From Nanobdellota archaeon (GTDB lineage Archaea > Nanobdellota > Nanobdellia > Woesearchaeales > GW2011-AR9): a stretch of DNA of 42,603 nt. How positions within the stretch are numbered: position 1 is the stretch's first letter; every line of letters starts with the position of its first letter. This document shows positions 1,089 through 35,043 of this stretch, in pieces. The stretch lies in assembly GCA_038046425.1 (NCBI GenBank), contig JBBSWG010000056.1, forward strand, positions 1 to 42,603, read 5' to 3'. The notes under the pieces were generated by a model. The model saw only the letters and a list, made by a program, of their open reading frames with translations, ran no database searches and had not been told where the DNA came from. The translations under genes and the position numbers were made by a program.

Positions 1089-2876
1089 ATGCCCTTCCGC
1101 AAACGAATAGCCGTCATCGACCGCGATAAATGTCATCCGCAAGAGTGTGGTAACTATCTCTGCGCTAAGCTCTGCCCCGTCAACCGGGCCGGAGCTGACT
1201 GCATCTATCCCGGCGATGATACGGGTAAGAAAGCCCGGATTGATGAATTTCTCTGCACCGGCTGCGGCATCTGCCCCGCGCGCTGCCCGTTTGGCGCCAT
1301 AACCATCATCAACCTTCCCAGCCAGTTGGATAAGCCGCCGGTCTATCGTTATGGCGAAAACCTGTTTGAGCTTTACTCGCTTCCTACCCCTCTGTTTGGT
1401 TCGGTAACCGGCATCCTGGGAAAAAATGGTATAGGCAAATCTACCGCTTTGAAGATTCTCGCTAATCTTATTAAACCTAATCTGGGAAAATGGAACAACC
1501 CGCCGGAATTCAAGGAAGTCTTGCAATATTTCCGGGGGACGGAACTGCAACGATTTCTGGAAAAGTCGCAGCGGAACGAAGTTTCCCTATCCTATAAGCC
1601 ACAGCAGGTGGATCTGATTCCTAAGCAGTATTCTGGCTCCGTTCGCGAGTTGCTGCAGCGTATTGCTAAAAATGGGAGATTGGAGAAAGTAACCGAGCAA
1701 TTACAATTGGACCCTTTCCTCGACAATCCCCTCTCTCAAATTTCCGGCGGGGAATTGCAAAAAGTAGCAATTGCTGCCGCTGCCCTTAAAGATGCGAACA
1801 TCTACCTCTTTGATGAGCCTACTTCCTATTTAGACATCAAGCAACGCCTGCAGACCTCTAACTTCATCCGCTCGCTGGCCAGCCAGGATTTAGTAGGAAA
1901 AGAGACGGCCGTCCTGGCCATCGAGCACGATTTAATCATCTTAGATTACCTGACGGATTTCCTAAACATCATGTATGGCCATGAAGGAGCCTATGGTGTC
2001 GTCTCGGGAGTAAAATCATCACGCGAAGGAATTAATACCTTTCTGGACGGTTACCTGCGGGAAGAAAATGTCCGTTTTCGTGATCATCCTATCAAATTCG
2101 AGAAAGTGCAGGAGCGCCAGCGGGGAAAAGCAGTGCCGTTATTAACCTGGAAGAACGTGGAGAAGAAATTGGGTAATTTCCAGCTGCGCACCCAGGAAGG
2201 AATTCTCAATAAGAATGAAATCGTCGGCATCTTGGGTGAAAATGGCATCGGTAAAACGTCTTTTGTGAAGATTGTTGCCGGGCTGCTGCCACCAGATAAT
2301 GGATTTATCGACAAGGAAATTAAAGTTTCTTATAAGCCGCAGTATTTAGAGACGGATTCCGGACAGCTCGTGGCAGAATTTTTACCGGAAGCAGTCCATA
2401 AATATACCAACCAGTTAATTGCCCCGCTGGGGATTGAAGCTTTACTAGCGAGAAAATTGAATCAGTTGTCCGGTGGTGAATTACAACGGGTAGCGATTGC
2501 CCGCTGCTTGTCCCAGGAGGCTCAGCTCTTCCTGCTGGATGAGCCTTCCGCTTATCTGGATGTGGAACAGCGATTGATCGTCTCGAAGGTGATCAAGCAT
2601 GTGGCCCAGGAACGCGAGGTAACGATCTTAGTCGTGGATCATGATTTGATGTTTATTGATTACGTATCGGACCGGTTGATCGTGATTACGGGCGAACCGG
2701 CCCGGCAAGGCTTGCTGCAGGGGCCTTTCTGGATGGAAGAGGGGATGAACTTGTTTCTGCAGGAGTTGGGGATTACGCTGCGTCGTGATCAGCAGAGCCA
2801 TCGTCCCCGGATCAATAAGGTGGGCAGCGTGAAAGACCGCGAGCAGCGGGAACAGAATAAGTGGTATTATAGCTAA
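1089..2876 (+). CDS. abcE1: ABCE1 / RNase L inhibitor-type ribosome-recycling ATPase (N-terminal 2x 4Fe-4S plus two ABC domains)
   Basis: IAVIDRDKCHPQECGNYLCAKLCP and CTGCGICPARCPFGAI are the Fe-S motifs. There are two Walker A sites (GKNGIGKST, GENGIGKTS) and two LSGGELQ signatures. I trimmed the start to the Met at 1089 (MPFRKRIAVID), since the track ORF begins 48 nt upstream. Confidence 0.95.
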   Translation: MPFRKRIAVIDRDKCHPQECGNYLCAKLCPVNRAGADCIYPGDDTGKKARIDEFLCTGCGICPARCPFGAITIINLPSQLDKPPVYRYGENLFELYSLPTPLFGSVTGILGKNGIGKSTALKILANLIKPNLGKWNNPPEFKEVLQYFRGTELQRFLEKSQRNEVSLSYKPQQVDLIPKQYSGSVRELLQRIAKNGRLEKVTEQLQLDPFLDNPLSQISGGELQKVAIAAAALKDANIYLFDEPTSYLDIKQRLQTSNFIRSLASQDLVGKETAVLAIEHDLIILDYLTDFLNIMYGHEGAYGVVSGVKSSREGINTFLDGYLREENVRFRDHPIKFEKVQERQRGKAVPLLTWKNVEKKLGNFQLRTQEGILNKNEIVGILGENGIGKTSFVKIVAGLLPPDNGFIDKEIKVSYKPQYLETDSGQLVAEFLPEAVHKYTNQLIAPLGIEALLARKLNQLSGGELQRVAIARCLSQEAQLFLLDEPSAYLDVEQRLIVSKVIKHVAQEREVTILVVDHDLMFIDYVSDRLIVITGEPARQGLLQGPFWMEEGMNLFLQELGITLRRDQQSHRPRINKVGSVKDREQREQNKWYYS

Positions 2877-4057: not shown

Positions 4058-6850
4058 GTGAATAGAATAGGAAGAGTTATTGGTGGTGGTAGTTTGCTTA
4101 GCCTGCTGGTTATCCTTCTTCTTGCCTGGTTTGCTGCTGCCGATGAGGAAGTCCACAATATTACGATGTCCGTACGCAATAGCACTTATAGCCTGGTGGG
4201 GGGAGCGAATCTAACCCTCTTCCAGTATGATCCCGTAACCCTTACTGAGACTCTGGTTGCGACCAATGTCACCGATGGAAATGGGACTGCCCTGTTGCTT
4301 AATGTCAATGACACTACTACCGTTCTCTACTACTTTGATGTCCGCATTTACCATAACGGCACCAGCAATGGCAATACTACCGAAATAAATATTCGCGGCA
4401 CGCCCCTGCCCGGCATAAAATTCAATACCTCCCTGCCGCTGGATGCCAATACTTCCACTATCTATACCGTTCCCGCCATCCGCATCAATTTGTCCGCCGT
4501 GAACAATACCGGGGAACATACTAATTTTTCCTATGTGGTGCTGCCTACTTCATTATCATCTAAAATTCCAATTGCCACGCGCCTGGCTGCCGGCCCCGCG
4601 GCAGAATTATATCTTCCCTATCAGCTCAATTACAGCTTTTTCTTTTTCTTTCAGTCTAATATTACGGCTGCGCCCACGACCCCGCCAAGCCAAGTTTTGT
4701 TTACCAACTTTACCACCTATCAACAACAGAGCACTATTTACATCCAAGATAATCTCACGCGCACGAACATTTCCTTGAGCGGCTACATCACCATAACCGG
4801 AAATACCACTCCTGCCAATTGGTCTCAAACCAGAAACTTGGCGCAGGTGTTCGCTATCGTCAGTTCTGCCGGAGGAACAGCTAAAGGCCTTATTCCTCCC
4901 GTGGGAAATATGAGCACGACTTGGCTGGTTAACTCCACTTGGTTTTATAATGTCACGCTTCCGGCTTCCCGCGCGGGCATTCCCATTTTGGCCAGCCTGC
5001 ATACGGAAAATAGCAACGGGGCCAATCCCTCCACCGAATGGTATGCCGGCTATCAGAATATTACCGCCGTCACGGGCCGGGAACTCAGTTGGAATTTTAC
5101 CCTGACGCGGTTGACAGGAACAAATGCCCGGGAGAATGTAACCGGGGTAAACGCCAGCTACTTCCAGGTAAATCTTATTGATGGAGACAGTGCTGATGCC
5201 GCAGTTACTTCCGCTTTCTGTGAAGTAACCGCCGAAGCCGCAGCCGCGGGTGACGGTACGAACCTGGAAATAAGCCGGATGATTACGGCTCCTGATGGCG
5301 ATGGAAGAATCTTTTTTCCTACCCAGCTAGGCAACTATTCTAACGCCACCGTGGAATGTTTTGCTAGCCGCTTTACCCCACTCAAAACTGAAGTTAATAC
5401 TTCTTTGAATAGCACCACCATGAACTTTACGGCCTTTACGATGCAGTCGATTTCCGCCGCCGGGACCATCAGCGATTACAGCACGGCTATCAAGCAAAGC
5501 ACAACCATCCGTGTCCTGCAGTCTACTTCAGCCTGTAATGTCTTTCATCCTGACTTAACGGCCTGCACGCTGTTCACGACTAACGCCGTGTTTGATCCGG
5601 TCCAGGTTCAGATTCCCTTCGCTACGGTCCATATTACCCTTCCGGATGGCAGTATCATCATGCTCGTGAATCAGCAGATGACAGGAAACGGTTTCGTCGC
5701 CCCCCGTTCCCGCCTGTCGGCAGGAGCAGGAACCTCCGACGGAAAAGATGTTTTTGGCTACCGCTTCGGAGCAGCCGTGCCTAAAGACATCGCCTCCCAG
5801 ATATTTATCGGCCTGCGCTATAATGAAACTGTTGAAGATTCAGGGGAAGTCAATTTTAGCCTGTCCATCCTGCGTGATGATGCCGGGCGAATAGTCTGGA
5901 ACCGTAGCGTTGATGCTGCCGCTTCCCGCCCCGCCCTGTTCTCTGATTACAATGAAACGTTATTGCAGCCAACTGGCGTGCTCGCCAGCAAGACGAACAA
6001 AAGCAAGTTGGTTTACGTGAACACGACTAATAATACTTTATGGTATAGCCTCCCTCATTTTTCTGAGTCTGAGCCGGAAGTTTCTGAGCCGGGAGTTGAA
6101 GCTGCTGCTACCGCAGCGAGAGGAGGGTCGGCTGATGGGGGCGGCGGGGGAGGAATAAGCAAAGCTGTAGGGATCTCGTTTCAGCAGGCTATTAATGGTC
6201 TGGCTAAAGGAAACAGTGCCCTCATTTCCGTAGGCAATAGTGGTTTAGCAGTGGAAACTATCTCGTTTGGCGTCACGGAATCTGTGGGAAAGTTTGTGGT
6301 AACAGTCACCAAAGAAGATCGAAGCAGCCTTCCAGCAGAAGCGCGAAGTTTTAGTGGAAAACCCTACCTCTTCCTGAAAATTGCCACGACCTTATCTGAT
6401 GTGGCTTTATCGAATCCTGCGCTCGACTTCAAAGTGCGCAAAAGTTGGCTGACAGAGAATAAAGTCAATAAAAAAGATATCGTCTTGCTGCGCTTTACTG
6501 CTGATAAGTGGAATAATTTACCAACTATTTTGGAAAAAGAGGATGACTTATTCGTATTCTACCGCGCTGAGACACCGGGTTTCAGTTACTTTGTGATTGG
6601 TGAGCGGCAATCATCGCTTCCTTCCGCTAAGAAAGAAATCGAGCAACCGGAACCAGCAGCTGCTGTAGAGCAGCCAGTTTCCGTCGAGCAGAGTTCACTT
6701 CCCCGAGAGGAAATCGGGAGGGAAGAGTTGGAAAGAGAACAGCAGCCGCCGGAAGAAAAACAACAGAGGGCACCATGGTGGCTGGCCGCTGTCCTGGTAG
6801 TGATTGGTATTATTGTTGGCTGGTTCTATGCCTTCCAGAGGAAGAAATGA
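4058..6850 (+). CDS. large secreted cell-surface (S-layer-like) glycoprotein with a PGF-pre-PGF domain and C-terminal TM anchor
   Basis: GTG start preceded by GAGGTG. There is an N-terminal signal/TM segment (LLSLLVILLLAWFAAA) and roughly 40 N-x-S/T sequons by eye. It has a PGF-pre-PGF-like segment ending ETPGFSYFVIGE, an E/P/Q-rich linker, and a C-terminal helix APWWLAAVLVVIGIIVGWFYAF followed by QRKK. Confidence 0.85.
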   Translation: MNRIGRVIGGGSLLSLLVILLLAWFAAADEEVHNITMSVRNSTYSLVGGANLTLFQYDPVTLTETLVATNVTDGNGTALLLNVNDTTTVLYYFDVRIYHNGTSNGNTTEINIRGTPLPGIKFNTSLPLDANTSTIYTVPAIRINLSAVNNTGEHTNFSYVVLPTSLSSKIPIATRLAAGPAAELYLPYQLNYSFFFFFQSNITAAPTTPPSQVLFTNFTTYQQQSTIYIQDNLTRTNISLSGYITITGNTTPANWSQTRNLAQVFAIVSSAGGTAKGLIPPVGNMSTTWLVNSTWFYNVTLPASRAGIPILASLHTENSNGANPSTEWYAGYQNITAVTGRELSWNFTLTRLTGTNARENVTGVNASYFQVNLIDGDSADAAVTSAFCEVTAEAAAAGDGTNLEISRMITAPDGDGRIFFPTQLGNYSNATVECFASRFTPLKTEVNTSLNSTTMNFTAFTMQSISAAGTISDYSTAIKQSTTIRVLQSTSACNVFHPDLTACTLFTTNAVFDPVQVQIPFATVHITLPDGSIIMLVNQQMTGNGFVAPRSRLSAGAGTSDGKDVFGYRFGAAVPKDIASQIFIGLRYNETVEDSGEVNFSLSILRDDAGRIVWNRSVDAAASRPALFSDYNETLLQPTGVLASKTNKSKLVYVNTTNNTLWYSLPHFSESEPEVSEPGVEAAATAARGGSADGGGGGGISKAVGISFQQAINGLAKGNSALISVGNSGLAVETISFGVTESVGKFVVTVTKEDRSSLPAEARSFSGKPYLFLKIATTLSDVALSNPALDFKVRKSWLTENKVNKKDIVLLRFTADKWNNLPTILEKEDDLFVFYRAETPGFSYFVIGERQSSLPSAKKEIEQPEPAAAVEQPVSVEQSSLPREEIGREELEREQQPPEEKQQRAPWWLAAVLVVIGIIVGWFYAFQRKK

Positions 6851-7802: not shown

Positions 7803-8120
7803 TCACGTCAAAATGAGGGCGGACCACCGGTCATAGACCGGTGGCATGCTCGCTTCGCTCGCCGCCCGCCCCATTTTGAGCGTGCTCAAAAATATACCGC
7901 CTAGAATTTCGCAGGTGGACTTTGTCCACCAGTCAATAGACTGGTGGTATATTTTTGACACATTAAAGATAGCCACACCCAGAACTTCAGGAGTATTTTG
8001 ACCCTTTCGTTCGAAAACACCGTCCTCAAGCTCCTCATAATACCCTTCTCGTGGTTCTCCTACCTGGAGCTCTAAATAATCTCCCGCTTCATCATAATAT
8101 AAGTGAAGGTTGCCTTTCAT
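7803..8120 (-). CDS. DUF2283-family protein whose 3' third is supplied by a MITE-like insertion
   Basis: The N-terminal 53 aa (MKGNLHLYYDEAGDYLELQV...VLGVAIFNV) fit the DUF2283 pattern (YDxEADxLYIxL ... GIEIxN). The remaining ~51 codons lie entirely inside repeat copy A (7807-7960) and end 2 nt beyond it. Confidence 0.6.
   Translation of the reverse strand: MKGNLHLYYDEAGDYLELQVGEPREGYYEELEDGVFERKGQNTPEVLGVAIFNVSKIYHQSIDWWTKSTCEILGGIFLSTLKMGRAASEASMPPVYDRWSALILT
7807..7960 (-). mobile_element. MITE-like structured repeat, copy A (154 nt, inverted relative to copy B)
   Basis: The reverse complement aligns end to end with 12502-12659. By manual alignment there are 6 substitutions (all transitions) and one 4-nt indel. 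Termini are TGTCAAAA...TTTTGAC(A). It contains internal hairpins CCACCAGTC-TATT-GACTGGTGG, GGTGGAC-AAA-GTCCACC and CCACCGGTC-TAT-GACCGGTGG. Confidence 0.8.
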
Positions 8121-8128
8121 TTTAGTTC

Positions 8129-8251
8129 TTATTTTATTTCTTCAAGACGATTTGCTAGTTCTGAATGACGGGTTGCAAGGTGCAACCAGCATTCCTGAGT
8201 GAGGCGAATTCGCCTTCCACTTCCATTTTCTATTTCAAATATCTGAATCAT
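8129..8251 (-). CDS. small ORF (40 aa), possibly a truncated partner of the DUF2283 gene
   Basis: MIQIFEIENGSGRRIRLTQECWLHLATRHSELANRLEEIK lies directly upstream of the DUF2283 gene and is co-oriented with it. No confident family call. Confidence 0.25.
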   Translation of the reverse strand: MIQIFEIENGSGRRIRLTQECWLHLATRHSELANRLEEIK

Positions 8252-8259
8252 TGTTACCA

Positions 8260-8874
8260 CTAAGCCCTTCCTTTACTTTCCCCTTTCACTATTCCAGCAC
8301 CAATCAAATGGGCGGTCCGGATCGGTTCAGGGATGTAACTATGAGTACAGCAGAGTTTAATGATTTTTACCGCTTCCTCCAGCGCTATACCAGCTGCCTG
8401 AATGAAGATTTTTCCTTCCAAGGCTTTTCTTTCCAAAGCTTTTCCTTCCGGGGCCTTTCTTTCCTTTACGTTTACTTCTTTTGGCTTGCCCGCTTTTTCC
8501 ATCAATTGATACTTTTTCTCCATCCCCAGTTTCTGAAGGGTCTGCTCTAACTTCTCAAAATCCGGCATCTTTCTCACCACCACAATCACCGGAAGGCCCG
8601 TATGCTGGTTCAAGCTATGAATATTGATGACGTTAAATCCGCCCACGGCAATGCCATCCAGCAGAATCGCTTGCAGCTGTGGCTTAAATTTGCTGTTGTT
8701 GATCATCTGGATCAGCTGGTAGGTGGCATCGTCGCCATCAACATTTACCTGCGTGCTGAGCACGCCGTCCATCCATTCCCCGCCGCGGAAGAAAGTGGCG
8801 ATGACCGGAACGGTTTTATCACCTAGATTGAACGGAGCATCGTCAATGCCGAGGAGGCGGATTTGGGATTTCAT
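8260..8874 (-). CDS. DUF99 / UPF0215 family protein (endonuclease V-like fold)
   Basis: LLGIDDAPF, VDGDDAT, LLDGIAVGGFNVI, LPVIVVVRKMPD and PEPIRTAHLI match the conserved DUF99 blocks. It ends in TAG and contains an in-frame 15-bp tandem repeat. Confidence 0.8.
   Translation of the reverse strand: MKSQIRLLGIDDAPFNLGDKTVPVIATFFRGGEWMDGVLSTQVNVDGDDATYQLIQMINNSKFKPQLQAILLDGIAVGGFNVINIHSLNQHTGLPVIVVVRKMPDFEKLEQTLQKLGMEKKYQLMEKAGKPKEVNVKERKAPEGKALERKALEGKIFIQAAGIALEEAVKIIKLCCTHSYIPEPIRTAHLIGAGIVKGESKGRA
8410..8464. repeat. 15-bp tandem repeat (about 3.7 units) inside the DUF99 gene
   Basis: TTTTCCTTCCAAGGC / TTTTCTTTCCAAAGC / TTTTCCTTCCGGGGC / CTTTCTTTCC. It is in frame and encodes KAPEGKALERKALEGK on the minus strand. 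Confidence 0.8.
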
Positions 8875-20865: not shown

Positions 20866-21534
20866 TCACGGCTTCTTCACAATAATCAGGCAATGATCTT
20901 TCTGATACGGCTCTAGGATCCGGTAATCAATCACCGTAAACAGTTTCTCCAGCATCCTCCGCACTTCTTCAAAAATCACTTTTGGCTTCTTCGTGACATC
21001 AATACTTCTGGCTTTTACGGCCAGCAGGCCATAGCCCCCTTTCTTCAGGAAGAGCTGGCAGTTGCGGATAAAGATATCAGCCTGATTCCGCTGAGCGACG
21101 TCCTGGTAGACGATGTCCGCGAGACAGATCTTATCGGTGTACTCTTCCGGATGGTTGGCATCAGCAAGAATAGGCACGATGTTCTTGCGCTCTTCAGCTA
21201 AAAAGACCAGATCACGCATCACCCGGGGAGCCGGATCAAGAGCAAAAATAAGCCCTTCTTGGCCCACTATGTCGCTGACAAAGCTTACGGTATAGCCATG
21301 ACTGCTGCCAAGATAGAGAATCACATCACCTTTACGGATGAACACATTGGTACAGCCTTTCGTAATCGTGGCCGCCAGCTTGCTCCTCGTGGGCTCAAAT
21401 TCGCGGTATTCAACCCCGCCCTGCCGGAGAATGTTCTCGGCAAAAGGCATCTTTCCCGGCAACAGGCTTTGGGTGTAGAGCCGATAGCCATCACTGTACA
21501 CTTCAAATATCTTGTGGGGGATTAGTTTAGACAT
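20866..21534 (-). CDS. flpA: fibrillarin-like rRNA/tRNA 2'-O-methyltransferase
   Basis: SKLAATI, VILYLGSSHGYTVSFVSDIVG, ILADANHPEEY and YQDVAQRNQADI match the fibrillarin SAM-MTase blocks. It is adjacent to nop5. Confidence 0.92.
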   Translation of the reverse strand: MSKLIPHKIFEVYSDGYRLYTQSLLPGKMPFAENILRQGGVEYREFEPTRSKLAATITKGCTNVFIRKGDVILYLGSSHGYTVSFVSDIVGQEGLIFALDPAPRVMRDLVFLAEERKNIVPILADANHPEEYTDKICLADIVYQDVAQRNQADIFIRNCQLFLKKGGYGLLAVKARSIDVTKKPKVIFEEVRRMLEKLFTVIDYRILEPYQKDHCLIIVKKP

Positions 21535-21544
21535 GGTACGATGT

Positions 21545-22489
21545 TTATTCCTTCAATTTCTCTTCCAGCTCTTTTTTATACTCTCTGGCCTTAAACTCCC
21601 CTTTAAAATAATCGAGTCGAGAGCACAACGACAATTTATCGGCCAGCCTTCTCGCCGCTTTTCCCCGTTCACTGGCTTTGACTTTTTGTACTAAGGGATG
21701 CTGGTAAAGAAGGCCGTATTTAGGCGAGCGGGCTCCGGAAGTGATATGTCGAAATAAGGCCTTCTCCGCTCCCAGCAGCTGAATGGTTGAGGCCGGAAGA
21801 AGAGCCAGATTCTTTAATCCTTTGGCCAGTTCCAGCAGCTTGGCACCAATGGTTGCCCCCGCCAACTCCAGAAGATTAGGACAGTTCTGCTGCATGACCT
21901 CTTCCAGATACTGCTCATGCTTATGGCGCAGCTGGTATAAGTTAACCAGCTCTTTAGCTAAAGCGGTCATTTCCTCAATATCCTCTTTCTTTAATCCTGC
22001 CCCCATAGTTCCCTTTTCCTGATAATCTTTCATCAATTGCTCGCGGGTTTTCGTAGAGGCCAATTCGGCAAATTTTTCGTGGTCGTGCACTCTCTCAGCG
22101 AGTTCCGGGTAATACCAGCCATACCATTCCCGCAGACGTCTGGCTAGCAGATTAGCCGTCTTATCCAGCTCCTGAACGTTGGCGATGGCCTGAATCAAGA
22201 GCTGGTCTTTAGTGACGGAGGCTTTGATTTTCTGTTTAGTTAGGGCGAGATTCTGCCGGTAGAAAGAAGGGTAATACGATGAATTTTTGAGCGCGGCCAG
22301 CGCGGAGGCTATTTTTTCTGGTGGCAGGTCACGCAGGCCGGGATGGCGTTGCCGTAGTTTTTGGCTCGTTTTGTCTTTCGTCTCTCTCGTGGCATATTCC
22401 TCTGGGGGGGAAAAGAGAATCTTCTCTACCACCTGGAACTGGTTGTCAAAGACGAATGAGCCGATAAGGGAAGTATAGATATATTTCAT
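21545..22489 (-). CDS. nop5: Nop5 (Nop56/58) C/D box sRNP core protein, short form
   Basis: LLELAGATIGAKLLELAKGLKNLALLPASTIQLLGAEKALFRH...PKYGLLYQHPLV...RGKAARRLADKLSLCSRLDYF is the NOP domain. At 314 aa it is shorter than typical archaeal Nop5. Confidence 0.9.
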   Translation of the reverse strand: MKYIYTSLIGSFVFDNQFQVVEKILFSPPEEYATRETKDKTSQKLRQRHPGLRDLPPEKIASALAALKNSSYYPSFYRQNLALTKQKIKASVTKDQLLIQAIANVQELDKTANLLARRLREWYGWYYPELAERVHDHEKFAELASTKTREQLMKDYQEKGTMGAGLKKEDIEEMTALAKELVNLYQLRHKHEQYLEEVMQQNCPNLLELAGATIGAKLLELAKGLKNLALLPASTIQLLGAEKALFRHITSGARSPKYGLLYQHPLVQKVKASERGKAARRLADKLSLCSRLDYFKGEFKAREYKKELEEKLKE

Positions 22490-24456: not shown

Positions 24457-24518
24457 GCCAATGAATCTTGTTCGCTGCTCTTAAGAAAAAAATGAGAGGT
24501 TACTTTCGTAACCCCCAA

Positions 24519-24647
24519 CGCCCCGGACCAGATTTGAATTCACCGCTCTCAGAGGGCCTCTCTAAGAACCTCTGGTGACCTGATGGTTAACAGCCATCCG
24601 CTTTAGTCGCAATTAAAATTGCTCTAACCGGGCTAAGCCACCGGGGC
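24519..24647 (-). tRNA. tRNA-Asn (anticodon GUU) carrying two non-canonical insertions (about 21 nt and 33 nt)
   Basis: Minus strand reads GCCCCGG-TG-GCTT-AGCCCGGTTA-GAGC-[22 nt incl. N26]-GATGG-CTGTTAA-CCATC-AGGTC-ACCAG-[33 nt]-TTCAAAT-CTGGT-CCGGGGC-G. All four stems pair. The anticodon GTT is the forward aac at 24589-24591. Discriminator G. Downstream is hairpin GGTTAC-GAAA-GTAACC and then T7. TTTATAAA lies 25 nt upstream. Confidence 0.75.
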
Positions 24648-24671: not shown

Positions 24672-24679
24672 TTTATAAA
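24672..24679. promoter_or_regulatory. palindromic TATA box TTTATAAA shared by tRNA-Asn (minus) and the phosphoesterase gene (plus)
   Basis: It is exactly 25 nt from the tRNA 5' end (24647) and 25 nt from the ATG at 24704. Confidence 0.55.
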
Positions 24680-24703: not shown

Positions 24704-25492
24704 ATGGAAATCAGCCCTGGCCTCGAAATCATCCACACCGCCTTATGGCTCACCCAGAAAAAAATCCTGATCATCAACGACCTTCATCTTGGCTATGAAG
24801 AAGCCTGGCAGCGGAAAGGAATCTTAGTGCCGAAATTCCAGCTGTCGGAGATCATCAAAGAGTTGGAGTCTATTTTAGAAAAAATAGCCCCTGAAAATCC
24901 CACCACGGTTATCATCAACGGCGACCTAAAGCATGAATTTGGGACGGTCTTAAAGCAGGAATGGAAAGAAGTGTTAGCTTTCCTGGATTTTGTGGCTGGA
25001 TTTTGCGAGAATATCGTTATTCTCCGGGGCAATCATGATCCGCTTTTAAGATTTATTGCCGAGAAACGAGGAATTCAGGTGGTAACAGAATATACGGTGA
25101 GCGATATTCTTATTATCCATGGTGATGAAATAGTCGACACGACGTCCCGAACCGGGATAAAACGTCTCATTATCGGCCATGAGCATCCGGCCATCACCCT
25201 AAAAAAAGGCAGCAAGCGCGAGAAGTATAAATGTTTCCTGAAGGGAACGTGGAAAATGCCGGAGGGGAAAACTAGAGAAAAAGCCGGAAAACGGGAAGGA
25301 AAGGCAGCGAAAGAGCTGATTGCCGTGCCCAGCTTTAACCCGCTGTTGGAAGGGACGGATGTGTTAAAGGAGAAGCTGTTGAGTCCGTTCCTGGAAAAGA
25401 TTGCAGATTTTGAAGTGTATGTGGTGGGAAAAGAGGACGTATTCTGTTTTGGGAAGGTGGGGGAAGTGGGAAAGATAGTTAGGTTAAAATAA
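24704..25492 (+). CDS. metallophosphoesterase, SbcD/Mre11-related archaeal type
   Basis: Motifs INDLHLG, INGDLKHEF, LRGNHDP, IIHGDE and IGHEHP. Confidence 0.7.
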   Translation: MEISPGLEIIHTALWLTQKKILIINDLHLGYEEAWQRKGILVPKFQLSEIIKELESILEKIAPENPTTVIINGDLKHEFGTVLKQEWKEVLAFLDFVAGFCENIVILRGNHDPLLRFIAEKRGIQVVTEYTVSDILIIHGDEIVDTTSRTGIKRLIIGHEHPAITLKKGSKREKYKCFLKGTWKMPEGKTREKAGKREGKAAKELIAVPSFNPLLEGTDVLKEKLLSPFLEKIADFEVYVVGKEDVFCFGKVGEVGKIVRLK

Positions 25493-34847: not shown

Positions 34848-35043
34848 TGCCTCGGCCGGGATTTTCGTTTTTCCCCCACGATAGGGGTTGATGAGGGGCT
34901 AGGCCCCTTATTTTCGAACCCGGGTCACCGCCTCGAAAGGGCAGTATGATAGTTTGTCCCTGGACAAACCCTACCGATCGAAGGTTTGTTGCGGTCCGGA
35001 TAGTGTTAACGTTACCAAGTAACGTTATCTACACCACCGAGGC
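34848..35043 (-). tRNA. tRNA-Glu (anticodon UUC), 196 nt, carrying a ~51-nt T-loop insertion and ~70 nt of extra sequence in the D-loop region
   Basis: Minus strand reads GCCTCGG-TG-GTGT-AG-[79 nt containing TATCCGG]-TCAT-A-CTGCC-CTTTCGA-GGCGG-TGAC-CCGGG-TTCGAA[51 nt]T-CCCGG-CCGAGGC-A, followed by T7. The acceptor (7 bp), anticodon (5 bp, one G-U) and T (5 bp) stems all pair. The D-stem GTGT/TCAT has the same pattern I recall from haloarchaeal tRNA-Glu. An A/T-rich box lies about 25-32 nt upstream. Confidence 0.8.

Follow-up and report, generated by a model that had tools for sequence, protein, structure and literature searches.

A tRNA-Asn(GUU) gene lies on the minus strand of a 42,603-nucleotide (nt) stretch of DNA from a Nanobdellota archaeon (contig JBBSWG010000056.1, analysed at its full length and called the window below). 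We conclude, with a probability of about 0.9, that it is a functional tRNA gene of the Woesearchaeota, a lineage of the DPANN archaea, into which two bulge-helix-bulge (BHB) introns are inserted. Direct reading shows a gene of 129 nt (24647 to 24519) in the order GCCCCGG-TG-GCTT-AGCCCGGTTA-GAGC-(21 nt, AATTTTAATTGCGACTAAAGC)-G-GATGG-CTGTTAA-CCATC-AGGTC-ACCAG-(33 nt, AGGTTCTTAGAGAGGCCCTCTGAGAGCGGTGAA)-TTCAAAT-CTGGT-CCGGGGC-G. When the segments of 21 and 33 nt are taken out, a 75-nt product is obtained that ARAGORN identifies as tRNA-Asn(gtt), and the two non-canonical interruptions proposed by a first-pass annotation of the bare sequence were thereby borne out. In the raw window, ARAGORN found no tRNA anywhere, and neither did Rfam, be it at gathering thresholds or at E<=10, the unspliced gene included.

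The 75-nt product forms 21 of 21 stem pairs and its exons contain no stem mismatch. Direct reading also shows all invariant and semi-invariant nucleotides to be present, namely U8, A14, G18, G19, A21, U33, G53, T54, T55, C56, R57, A58 and C61 together with the R15:Y48 pair. The anticodon loop CTGTTAA, already described as intact, carries GUU at positions 34-36 as well as U33 and R37, and the discriminator base is G73, as expected for Asn; these features are shared by all orthologues discussed below. In the spliced product, the junction of exons 1 and 2 reads ...GGTTAGAG^CGGATGG... and that of exons 2 and 3 ...GTCACCAG^TTCAAATC... (the caret marks a splice site here and below). A SPLITS-like search was carried out on both strands of the window, in which each 7-bp acceptor anchor with U8 was taken, up to three BHB-compatible segments were removed and the resulting cloverleaf was checked. 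It yielded a full cloverleaf with a TTCRA T-loop at two loci only, the present gene and a tRNA-Glu(UUC) gene at 34848-35043. The tRNA-Asn gene was the only two-intron solution of the whole search, and the remaining solutions had three long 'introns', lacked the T-loop consensus and fell inside open reading frames (ORFs). The gene, whose three exons lie in colinear order on a single strand over 129 nt with one TATA box and one terminator, is thus neither split nor permuted. Self-splicing introns were considered and rejected, the inserts being only 21 and 33 nt long and giving no Rfam intron match. Group I and group II introns have a catalytic RNA core of hundreds of nt.

Table 1. Features of the tRNA-Asn(GUU) locus, inserts of the tRNA-Glu(UUC) gene and introns of orthologous tRNA-Asn genes. 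Positions are window coordinates; for the tRNA-Asn gene of the window and its orthologues (last eleven lines), intron sites in tRNA numbering with intron lengths are given instead, and identity is that of the neighbouring metallophosphoesterase to the window protein.
Feature	Position	Strand	Remarks
tRNA-Asn(GUU) gene	24519-24647	-	pre-tRNA body 129 nt; ARAGORN on spliced product, window search, cloverleaf covariation
Exon 1	24622-24647	-	acceptor 5' strand, U8-G9, D-stem 5' strand, D-loop AGCCCGGTTA, G22-A23-G24
Exon 2	24572-24600	-	C25, G26, GATGG-CTGTTAA-CCATC, variable loop AGGTC, T-stem 5' strand ACCAG
Exon 3	24519-24538	-	T-loop TTCAAAT, T-stem 3' strand CTGGT, acceptor 3' strand CCGGGGC, G73
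Anticodon GTT	24591-24589	-	
G73	24519	-	CCA not encoded
Intron 1	24601-24621	-	21 nt, CAATTTTAATTGCGACTAAAG, 24/25 register
Intron 1, equivalent registers	24603-24623 (22/23); 24600-24620 (25/26)	-	
BHB-1 central helix, exon strand TTAG	24624-24627	-	pre-tRNA 21-24; followed by 5' bulge AG^C
BHB-1 central helix, intron strand CTAA	24603-24606	-	pre-tRNA 42-45; followed by 3' bulge AG^C
Intron 2	24539-24571	-	33 nt, pre-tRNA 77-109, between G53 and T54; single possible register
BHB-2 central helix, exon strand CACC	24574-24577	-	tRNA 48-51; followed by 5' bulge AG^A
BHB-2 central helix, intron strand GGTG	24541-24544	-	intron 28-31; followed by 3' bulge AA^T
Intron 2 inner hairpin	24545-24569	-	10 bp, pre-tRNA 79-88 with 94-103, loop AGGCC
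TATA-box-like TTTATAAA	24672-24679	.	palindromic, archaeal type; 25 nt from tRNA 5' end (24647)
Terminator-like hairpin	24486-24516	-	9 bp, loop GAAA, then T7; directly after tRNA
tRNA-Glu insert 1	35001-35028	-	D-loop; perfect BHB core GTGT/ACAC
tRNA-Glu middle insert	about 34952-34993	-	roughly 42 nt, D-loop after G19/20a
tRNA-Glu insert 3	34862-34912	-	59/60; perfect BHB core TTCG/CGAA
Window tRNA-Asn	24/25 (21 nt), 53/54 (33 nt)		
L138	53/54 (32 nt)		74% identity
L139	D-loop (about 31 nt, register ambiguous), 37/38 (17 nt), 53/54 (32 nt)		70% identity
L145	37/38 (19 nt), 53/54 (20 nt)		65% identity
L001	37/38 (13 nt)		65% identity (proteasome alpha 93%)
L146	22/23 (15 nt), 59/60 (31 nt)		65% identity
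L147	no intron		65% identity
L140 / L141	22/23 (18 nt)		64% identity
L142	37/38 (17 nt)		62% identity
L143 / L144	30/31 (14 nt)		60% identity
L010	30/31 (44 nt), 37/38 (14 nt), 43/44 (22 nt)		55% identity

Introns were placed using a BHB geometry in which a 4-bp central helix is followed by a 3-nt bulge, with the splice site between the second and third bulge nucleotides. The same geometry assigns perfect helices to the ordinary 37/38 introns of two relatives (CTGT/ACAG in L027, CTGT/GCAG in L010), which thus serve as an internal control. Intron 1 has the repeat AGC at either end, and four registers (cleavage after 22, 23, 24 or 25) therefore lead to the same product. At 24/25, TTAG and CTAA form four Watson-Crick pairs flanked by symmetrical AG^C bulges; at 22/23, GGTT and GACT form two Watson-Crick and two G-U pairs. 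Judged from the sequence, intron 1 is best placed inside the 3' strand of the D-stem, either at 24/25 by pairing or at 22/23 by homology with the introns of L140 and L146. The earlier placement at the junction of D-stem and anticodon stem results in the same mature RNA. It had the length of 21 nt right and also recognized the GCAAT-TTTA-ATTGC hairpin, which is indeed present, while its range of 24599-24620 was one base too long (24600-24620 in that register). An alternative intron 1 covering pre-tRNA 18-37, with the helix TTAG/TTAA, would give a D-loop, AGCCGCGACTA, without G18G19, and was rejected because the orthologues L001 and L147 have contiguous AGCC(C)GGTTAGAGC.

For intron 2, the insert boundaries first proposed were exact. 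The accompanying suspicion that it has an unusual geometry without a recognizable BHB did not hold, since a CACC/GGTG core is found in exact register and covaries among relatives; the GGTTC/GAATT pairing pointed out in its place competes with this core and is not favoured. Both central helices are present in the unconstrained minimum free energy structure, with ensemble probabilities of 0.40-0.81 for intron 1 and about 0.82 for intron 2. When the introns were shuffled, a Watson-Crick helix of 4 bp arose where required with P = 0.008 (intron 1) and P = 0.010 (intron 2). The inner hairpin of intron 2 is likewise part of the minimum free energy structure, with a probability of 0.99 for the pair G79-C103. 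It stacks on the central helix at the 3' strand and leaves a 5' bulge of 4 nt, AGAG.

Several points weigh against two functional BHB introns. The cleavage register of intron 1 is not fixed by the sequence. Its core is not adjoined by an inner helix, and the outer pairs G19-C48 and C18-G49 imply a 2-nt bulge, while intron 2 combines its 4-nt 5' bulge with a weak outer helix. The strict hBHBh' form, in which bulges of exactly 3 nt are each adjoined by a helix of 2 bp or more, is thus seen in neither intron, and classical alpha4 EndA splicing endonucleases are reported to need strict motifs (PMC3239211). Pfam scans found no EndA or RtcB among the ORFs of the window, and a tblastn search with an M. 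jannaschii EndA query gave no match in 1.1 Mb of related loci. Further, splicing and expression are proposed here by analogy with established archaeal tRNA splicing. Given their weak or shifted flanking helices, the two motifs are therefore assigned to the relaxed BHB class described in PMC3239211, in which broad-specificity EndAs tolerate bulges of 1-4 nt.

The same weak or shifted flanking helices would also fit a different scenario, namely that the inserts are removed or tolerated without EndA and BHB, either through recognition of another fold or by being kept in the mature RNA. The second D-loop insert of the tRNA-Glu gene, which has no BHB core in any register, points in this direction as well. 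Nevertheless, we consider this scenario improbable. The 3-4-3 cores lie in register and covary, relaxed motifs with 1-4-nt bulges are known substrates of EndAs with extra loops (PMC3239211, PMC5829648), and both positions are standard EndA intron sites (PMC4090602).

Orthologous tRNA-Asn genes were found by synteny with a divergently transcribed metallophosphoesterase gene. This was far more productive than a fuzzy exon search of 80 proteasome-linked loci, which returned L001 only. In every relative recovered, the tRNA-Asn gene stands head-to-head with the metallophosphoesterase gene and uses the same TATA box. The series covers one family-level clade of mesophilic Woesearchaeota, with some intron sites inherited and others found in a single genome. 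The orthologues contain 0-3 introns per gene at no fewer than seven sites, namely the D-loop, 22/23-24/25, 30/31, 37/38, 43/44, 53/54 and 59/60. Three orthologues have the D-arm site in common. The first-pass annotation had suggested looking for conserved insertion positions with drifting sequences, and site 53/54 behaves in this way, as 4 of about 11 orthologues keep it with intron sequences that drift; the others have different introns or none. The L147 gene is free of introns and almost identical to the spliced product of the window gene, which fixes the exon boundaries independently. The only differences are a D-loop shorter by 2 nt, pair 13:22 changed from G·U to G-C and one compensated T-stem pair. 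Compared with the 5' part of the L001 orthologue, which is contiguous, exon 1 shows a single mismatch. In L140 and L146, the D-arm introns lie unambiguously at 22/23 (GGTT/AACC) and end in ...AACCAA^AGC, and intron 1 of the window ends in ...GACTAA^AGC. Based on these sequences, the three are probably the same ancestral intron, with the best helix of the window slid by 2 nt.

Pairing is conserved among the orthologues in the cloverleaf as well as between intron and exon. Across 11 spliced or intron-free orthologues, 231 of 231 cloverleaf pairs are kept and 11 pairs are changed on both sides; none of 500 shuffles was as good and slid controls reached 25-47%. Some splice sites of orthologues were picked to give a cloverleaf, which favours pairing in this count, but the exon sequences are fixed and L147 needs no splicing. 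The central helix at 53/54 occurs as CACC/GGTG, CGCC/GGCG and, in two orthologues, CGTC/GACG. All 12 of 12 cells are paired with two compensatory pairs, counted over only three aligned sequences, whereas sliding the partner leaves 17-80% paired. Covariation with the 3' strand of the T-stem is seen at these exon positions as well. These data bear on the possibility that the gene is a decaying tRNA-Asn pseudogene with two random insertions while a functional copy resides elsewhere in the genome. Such a pseudogene would explain why the raw sequence is recognised by neither ARAGORN nor Rfam, and a second tRNA-Asn gene beyond the window is compatible with the data. We regard it as very unlikely all the same, as both inserts have a BHB core in exact register, the exons are free of stem mismatches and the cloverleaf pairs of the orthologues are maintained through compensatory changes. 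Covariation of the 53/54 intron-exon helix, the conserved promoter and terminator, and the presence of tRNA-Asn at the same locus in every relative examined speak against decay as well.

The promoter element TTTATAAA upstream of the tRNA gene is also located 25 nt from the divergent metallophosphoesterase gene, counted to its ATG (24704), and the arrangement is kept in all orthologous loci. This suggests that one TATA box serves both genes in opposite directions. The motif occurs in 11 copies in the window compared with 1.56 expected. A hairpin followed by a T-run, comparable to the one directly downstream of the window gene, is found in L138, L139 and L145.

The window is part of an archaeal chromosome and its host is a tiny groundwater Woesearchaeota archaeon, which is present in the 0.1-0.2 um fraction of Hainich groundwater (ENA ERZ1292636, ERZ1292641, ERZ1292643). 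It encodes aIF2-gamma, aIF2-alpha, proteasome alpha, ABCE1, fibrillarin, Nop56/58, RadA and ribosomal protein L44e. Relatives of the proteasome alpha protein in GTDB genomes nearly all bear the label Woesearchaeota, Nanoarchaeota or Nanoarchaeia, with the best match being 93% identical, and a subset of proteasome-alpha relatives has been deposited as 'uncultured Methanosarcinales'. As the window stems from a metagenome assembly, a chimeric contig or mis-joined repeats could in principle have produced the interrupted gene. However, an identical 129-nt pre-tRNA together with an identical metallophosphoesterase protein and the same neighbours is found in six independently assembled contigs from different samples and pipelines (ENA Hainich groundwater samples, Logan runs), which excludes an assembly artefact, and related genomes contain homologous introns at the same sites. 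The chance of an assembly or binning error is thus negligible.

For a functional gene with two BHB introns, maturation could proceed as follows. A single precursor of roughly 130 nt would be transcribed from the TATA box at 24672-24679. In this precursor, TTAG (tRNA 20a-22, running from the last part of the D-loop into the D-stem 3' strand) is predicted to pair with CTAA of intron 1, and CACC (48-51, within the T-stem 5' strand) with GGTG of intron 2. Exon segments destined for mature stems would hence pair instead with the 3' part of the adjacent intron, each forming a 4-bp helix with unpaired nucleotides at the splice sites. EndA would cleave both bulges of each motif, four in total, and an RtcB-type ligase would join exons 1, 2 and 3, while the introns of 21 and 33 nt would be released, probably as circles. 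The freed strands could then refold to the D-stem and T-stem of the canonical 75-nt cloverleaf, and CCA would be added, none being encoded.

Interrupted tRNA genes are not restricted to this locus. In 1.14 Mb of relatives' DNA, ARAGORN finds 17 tRNAs, 10 of which it models with an intron, some of them wrongly. A BHB-aware scan found 12 class-I genes, comprising 2 uninterrupted genes, 5 with a 37/38 intron only and 5 with non-canonical or multiple introns. The tRNA-Glu(UUC) gene of the window, also on the minus strand, contains three inserts, confirming the observation that both tRNA genes of the window are disrupted. The middle insert shows no BHB core in the registers compatible with a plausible D-loop. 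Since interrupted tRNAs are frequent in relatives and tRNA-Glu is disrupted as well, the earlier view of a genome-wide property rather than one decayed gene is supported at the level of the lineage. Automated tools misread such genes. The three-intron tRNA-Asn of L010 (11053-11204, minus strand) is called tRNA-Asp(gtc) with one 60-nt intron by ARAGORN, and a second multi-intron gene of the same locus (8004-8143) is called tRNA-Phe(aaa).

Further interrupted genes were noted in passing. L001 encodes a tRNA-Val(GAC) at 6510-6729 (minus strand) with three predicted introns at 20/21, 37/38 and 59/60 (96 nt), L080 a tRNA-Ile(GAU) at 8613-8725 (minus strand) with introns at 37/38 and 59/60, and L063 a tRNA-Gln(UUG) at 2298-2409 (minus strand) with a 39-nt insert after position 10, the identical mature sequence being uninterrupted in L062. 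An exact metagenome scan with the D-arm 20-mer GTGGCTTAGCCCGGTTAGAG yielded mostly crenarchaeal tRNA-Ile and no close tRNA-Asn orthologue. The 20-mer is shared by tRNA-Ile(GAU) genes of hot-spring crenarchaea (L085, L087, L092, L094, L103 and others), variants of which have or lack an intron of roughly 19 nt at 53/54 (CCCGGG^AGGGGGAAATCCCCGGGAA^TTCGAAT), the same insertion site as that of intron 2 of the window, and additionally contain a 37/38 intron. In L110, a 1.3-kb metagenome contig, a tRNA-Asn gene with the same D-arm has a roughly 31-nt intron at about 30/31 and stands beside an uninterrupted tRNA-Glu(UUC) (the two at 233 onward, minus strand, and 183 onward, plus strand). This tRNA-Glu(UUC) was used as the template for the expected mature form of tRNA-Glu in the window.

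The neighbourhood of the tRNA-Asn gene appears to be an insertion hotspot. ORFs that match LAGLIDADG_3 (homing-endonuclease-like) in Pfam directly adjoin tRNA-Asn in L138 (2055-2924) and L140 (672-1373), and the window has a 92-aa ORF at this spot. The distance from the proteasome gene to the tRNA is about 3.7 kb in L001 compared with 0.35 kb in the window. On the minus strand at 24709-24778, a short way upstream of the tRNA promoter, there is a weak Rfam match to the archaeal C/D-box small RNA sR19 (17 bits, E=7.7, gathering threshold 45) with UGAUGA and CUGA boxes; genes for fibrillarin and Nop56/58 are located at 20866-22489. A C/D-box small RNA at this position was considered and judged to be probably a chance match, because the boxes sit on conserved codons, antisense to the N-terminus of the metallophosphoesterase, which also accounts for the conservation of the match in L001. 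A weak CRISPR-DR10-like Rfam match on the plus strand at 2409-2440 (22 bits, gathering threshold 39, E=1.2) falls inside the ABCE1/RLI ORF at 1041-2876 and is probably due to chance as well.

The locus reveals no new mechanism and its most interesting aspect is the rapid turnover of introns among orthologues. Standard finders (ARAGORN, Rfam) miss the window gene entirely and mislabel its L010 orthologue. Annotation artefacts thus account for part of the tRNAs 'missing' from DPANN metagenome-assembled genomes, and such gaps should not be taken as a sign of genome reduction or of dependence on a host. With the same neighbours and promoter throughout and 0-3 introns at different sites, the orthologues form a clean series that could help to date the gain and loss of introns and to establish which substrates DPANN splicing endonucleases accept. 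We tentatively propose, while remaining rather doubtful, that the series reflects ongoing, rapid gain and loss in a lineage with alpha4/L3-loop EndA. If this is true, the lineage would be a second independent natural system besides the Thermoproteales in which to test how BHB introns arise, move and vanish, and whether relaxed motifs without flanking helices represent a new substrate range of this enzyme class.

In comparison with known systems, the gene is a further example of archaeal BHB introns at unusual but already reported positions. Non-canonical archaeal sites include 20/21, 22/23, 25/26, 29/30, 30/31, 45/46, 53/54, 56/57 and 59/60 (PMC4090602). The one aspect not described in the literature we searched is an orthologous series of this kind, in which genes have 0-3 introns and at least seven sites are used, and full-text searches found no paper on Woesearchaeota tRNA introns at the locus level. 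Multiple-intron tRNAs and rapid intron turnover are classic for the Thermoproteales (PMC4033280), with multiple-intron tRNA genes known from Thermofilum, Pyrobaculum and Caldivirga (Sugahara 2008, Fujishima 2010, reviewed in PMC4033280 and PMC4090602). As in the present lineage, up to three BHB introns per tRNA occur there at 22/23, 25/26, 53/54 and 59/60, motifs are relaxed, intron sets differ between close species and genes are missed by standard finders. In contrast to these hyperthermophilic crenarchaea, the host of the window is a mesophilic groundwater DPANN archaeon. Its EndA, by analogy with DPANN relatives, would be expected to be an alpha4 enzyme with an L3 loop (PMC5829648) instead of an (alpha-beta)2 enzyme with the crenarchaeal loop. 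A blastn-short search of the window and all collected loci found no copies of the introns elsewhere, and there is consequently no sign of intron transposition; repeated, transposed intron copies as in the Thermoproteales are thus absent from the sequence searched.

Among DPANN archaea, ARMAN-2 has a tRNA-Pro with introns at 53/54 and 59/60, and relaxed motifs are substrates of its epsilon2 EndA (PMC3239211). BHB motifs of ARMAN-2 are of the strict as well as the relaxed kind, and the same T-arm sites are occupied in the window (53/54 in tRNA-Asn, 59/60 in tRNA-Glu). The combination of D-arm and T-arm introns in tRNA-Asn is specific to the present genome, however, and the epsilon2 EndA of ARMAN-2 is a three-unit enzyme. 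The DPANN survey of Kaneta et al. 2018, which included one Woesearchaeota metagenome-assembled genome, reported that alpha4 EndAs with an L3 loop go along with a markedly higher level of tRNA gene disruption and that gaps in predicted tRNA sets point to hidden disrupted genes (PMC5829648). The window provides an example of such hidden genes. While the survey determined genome-level proportions using tRNAscan-SE, the present analysis compares orthologues at a single locus and thereby addresses intron turnover. Lastly, split and permuted tRNAs of Nanoarchaeum equitans, Caldivirga and Thermofilum share BHB-dependent maturation by EndA and some of the same junctions with the gene described here, which differs from them in having three colinear exons in one 129-nt unit with one promoter and one terminator.

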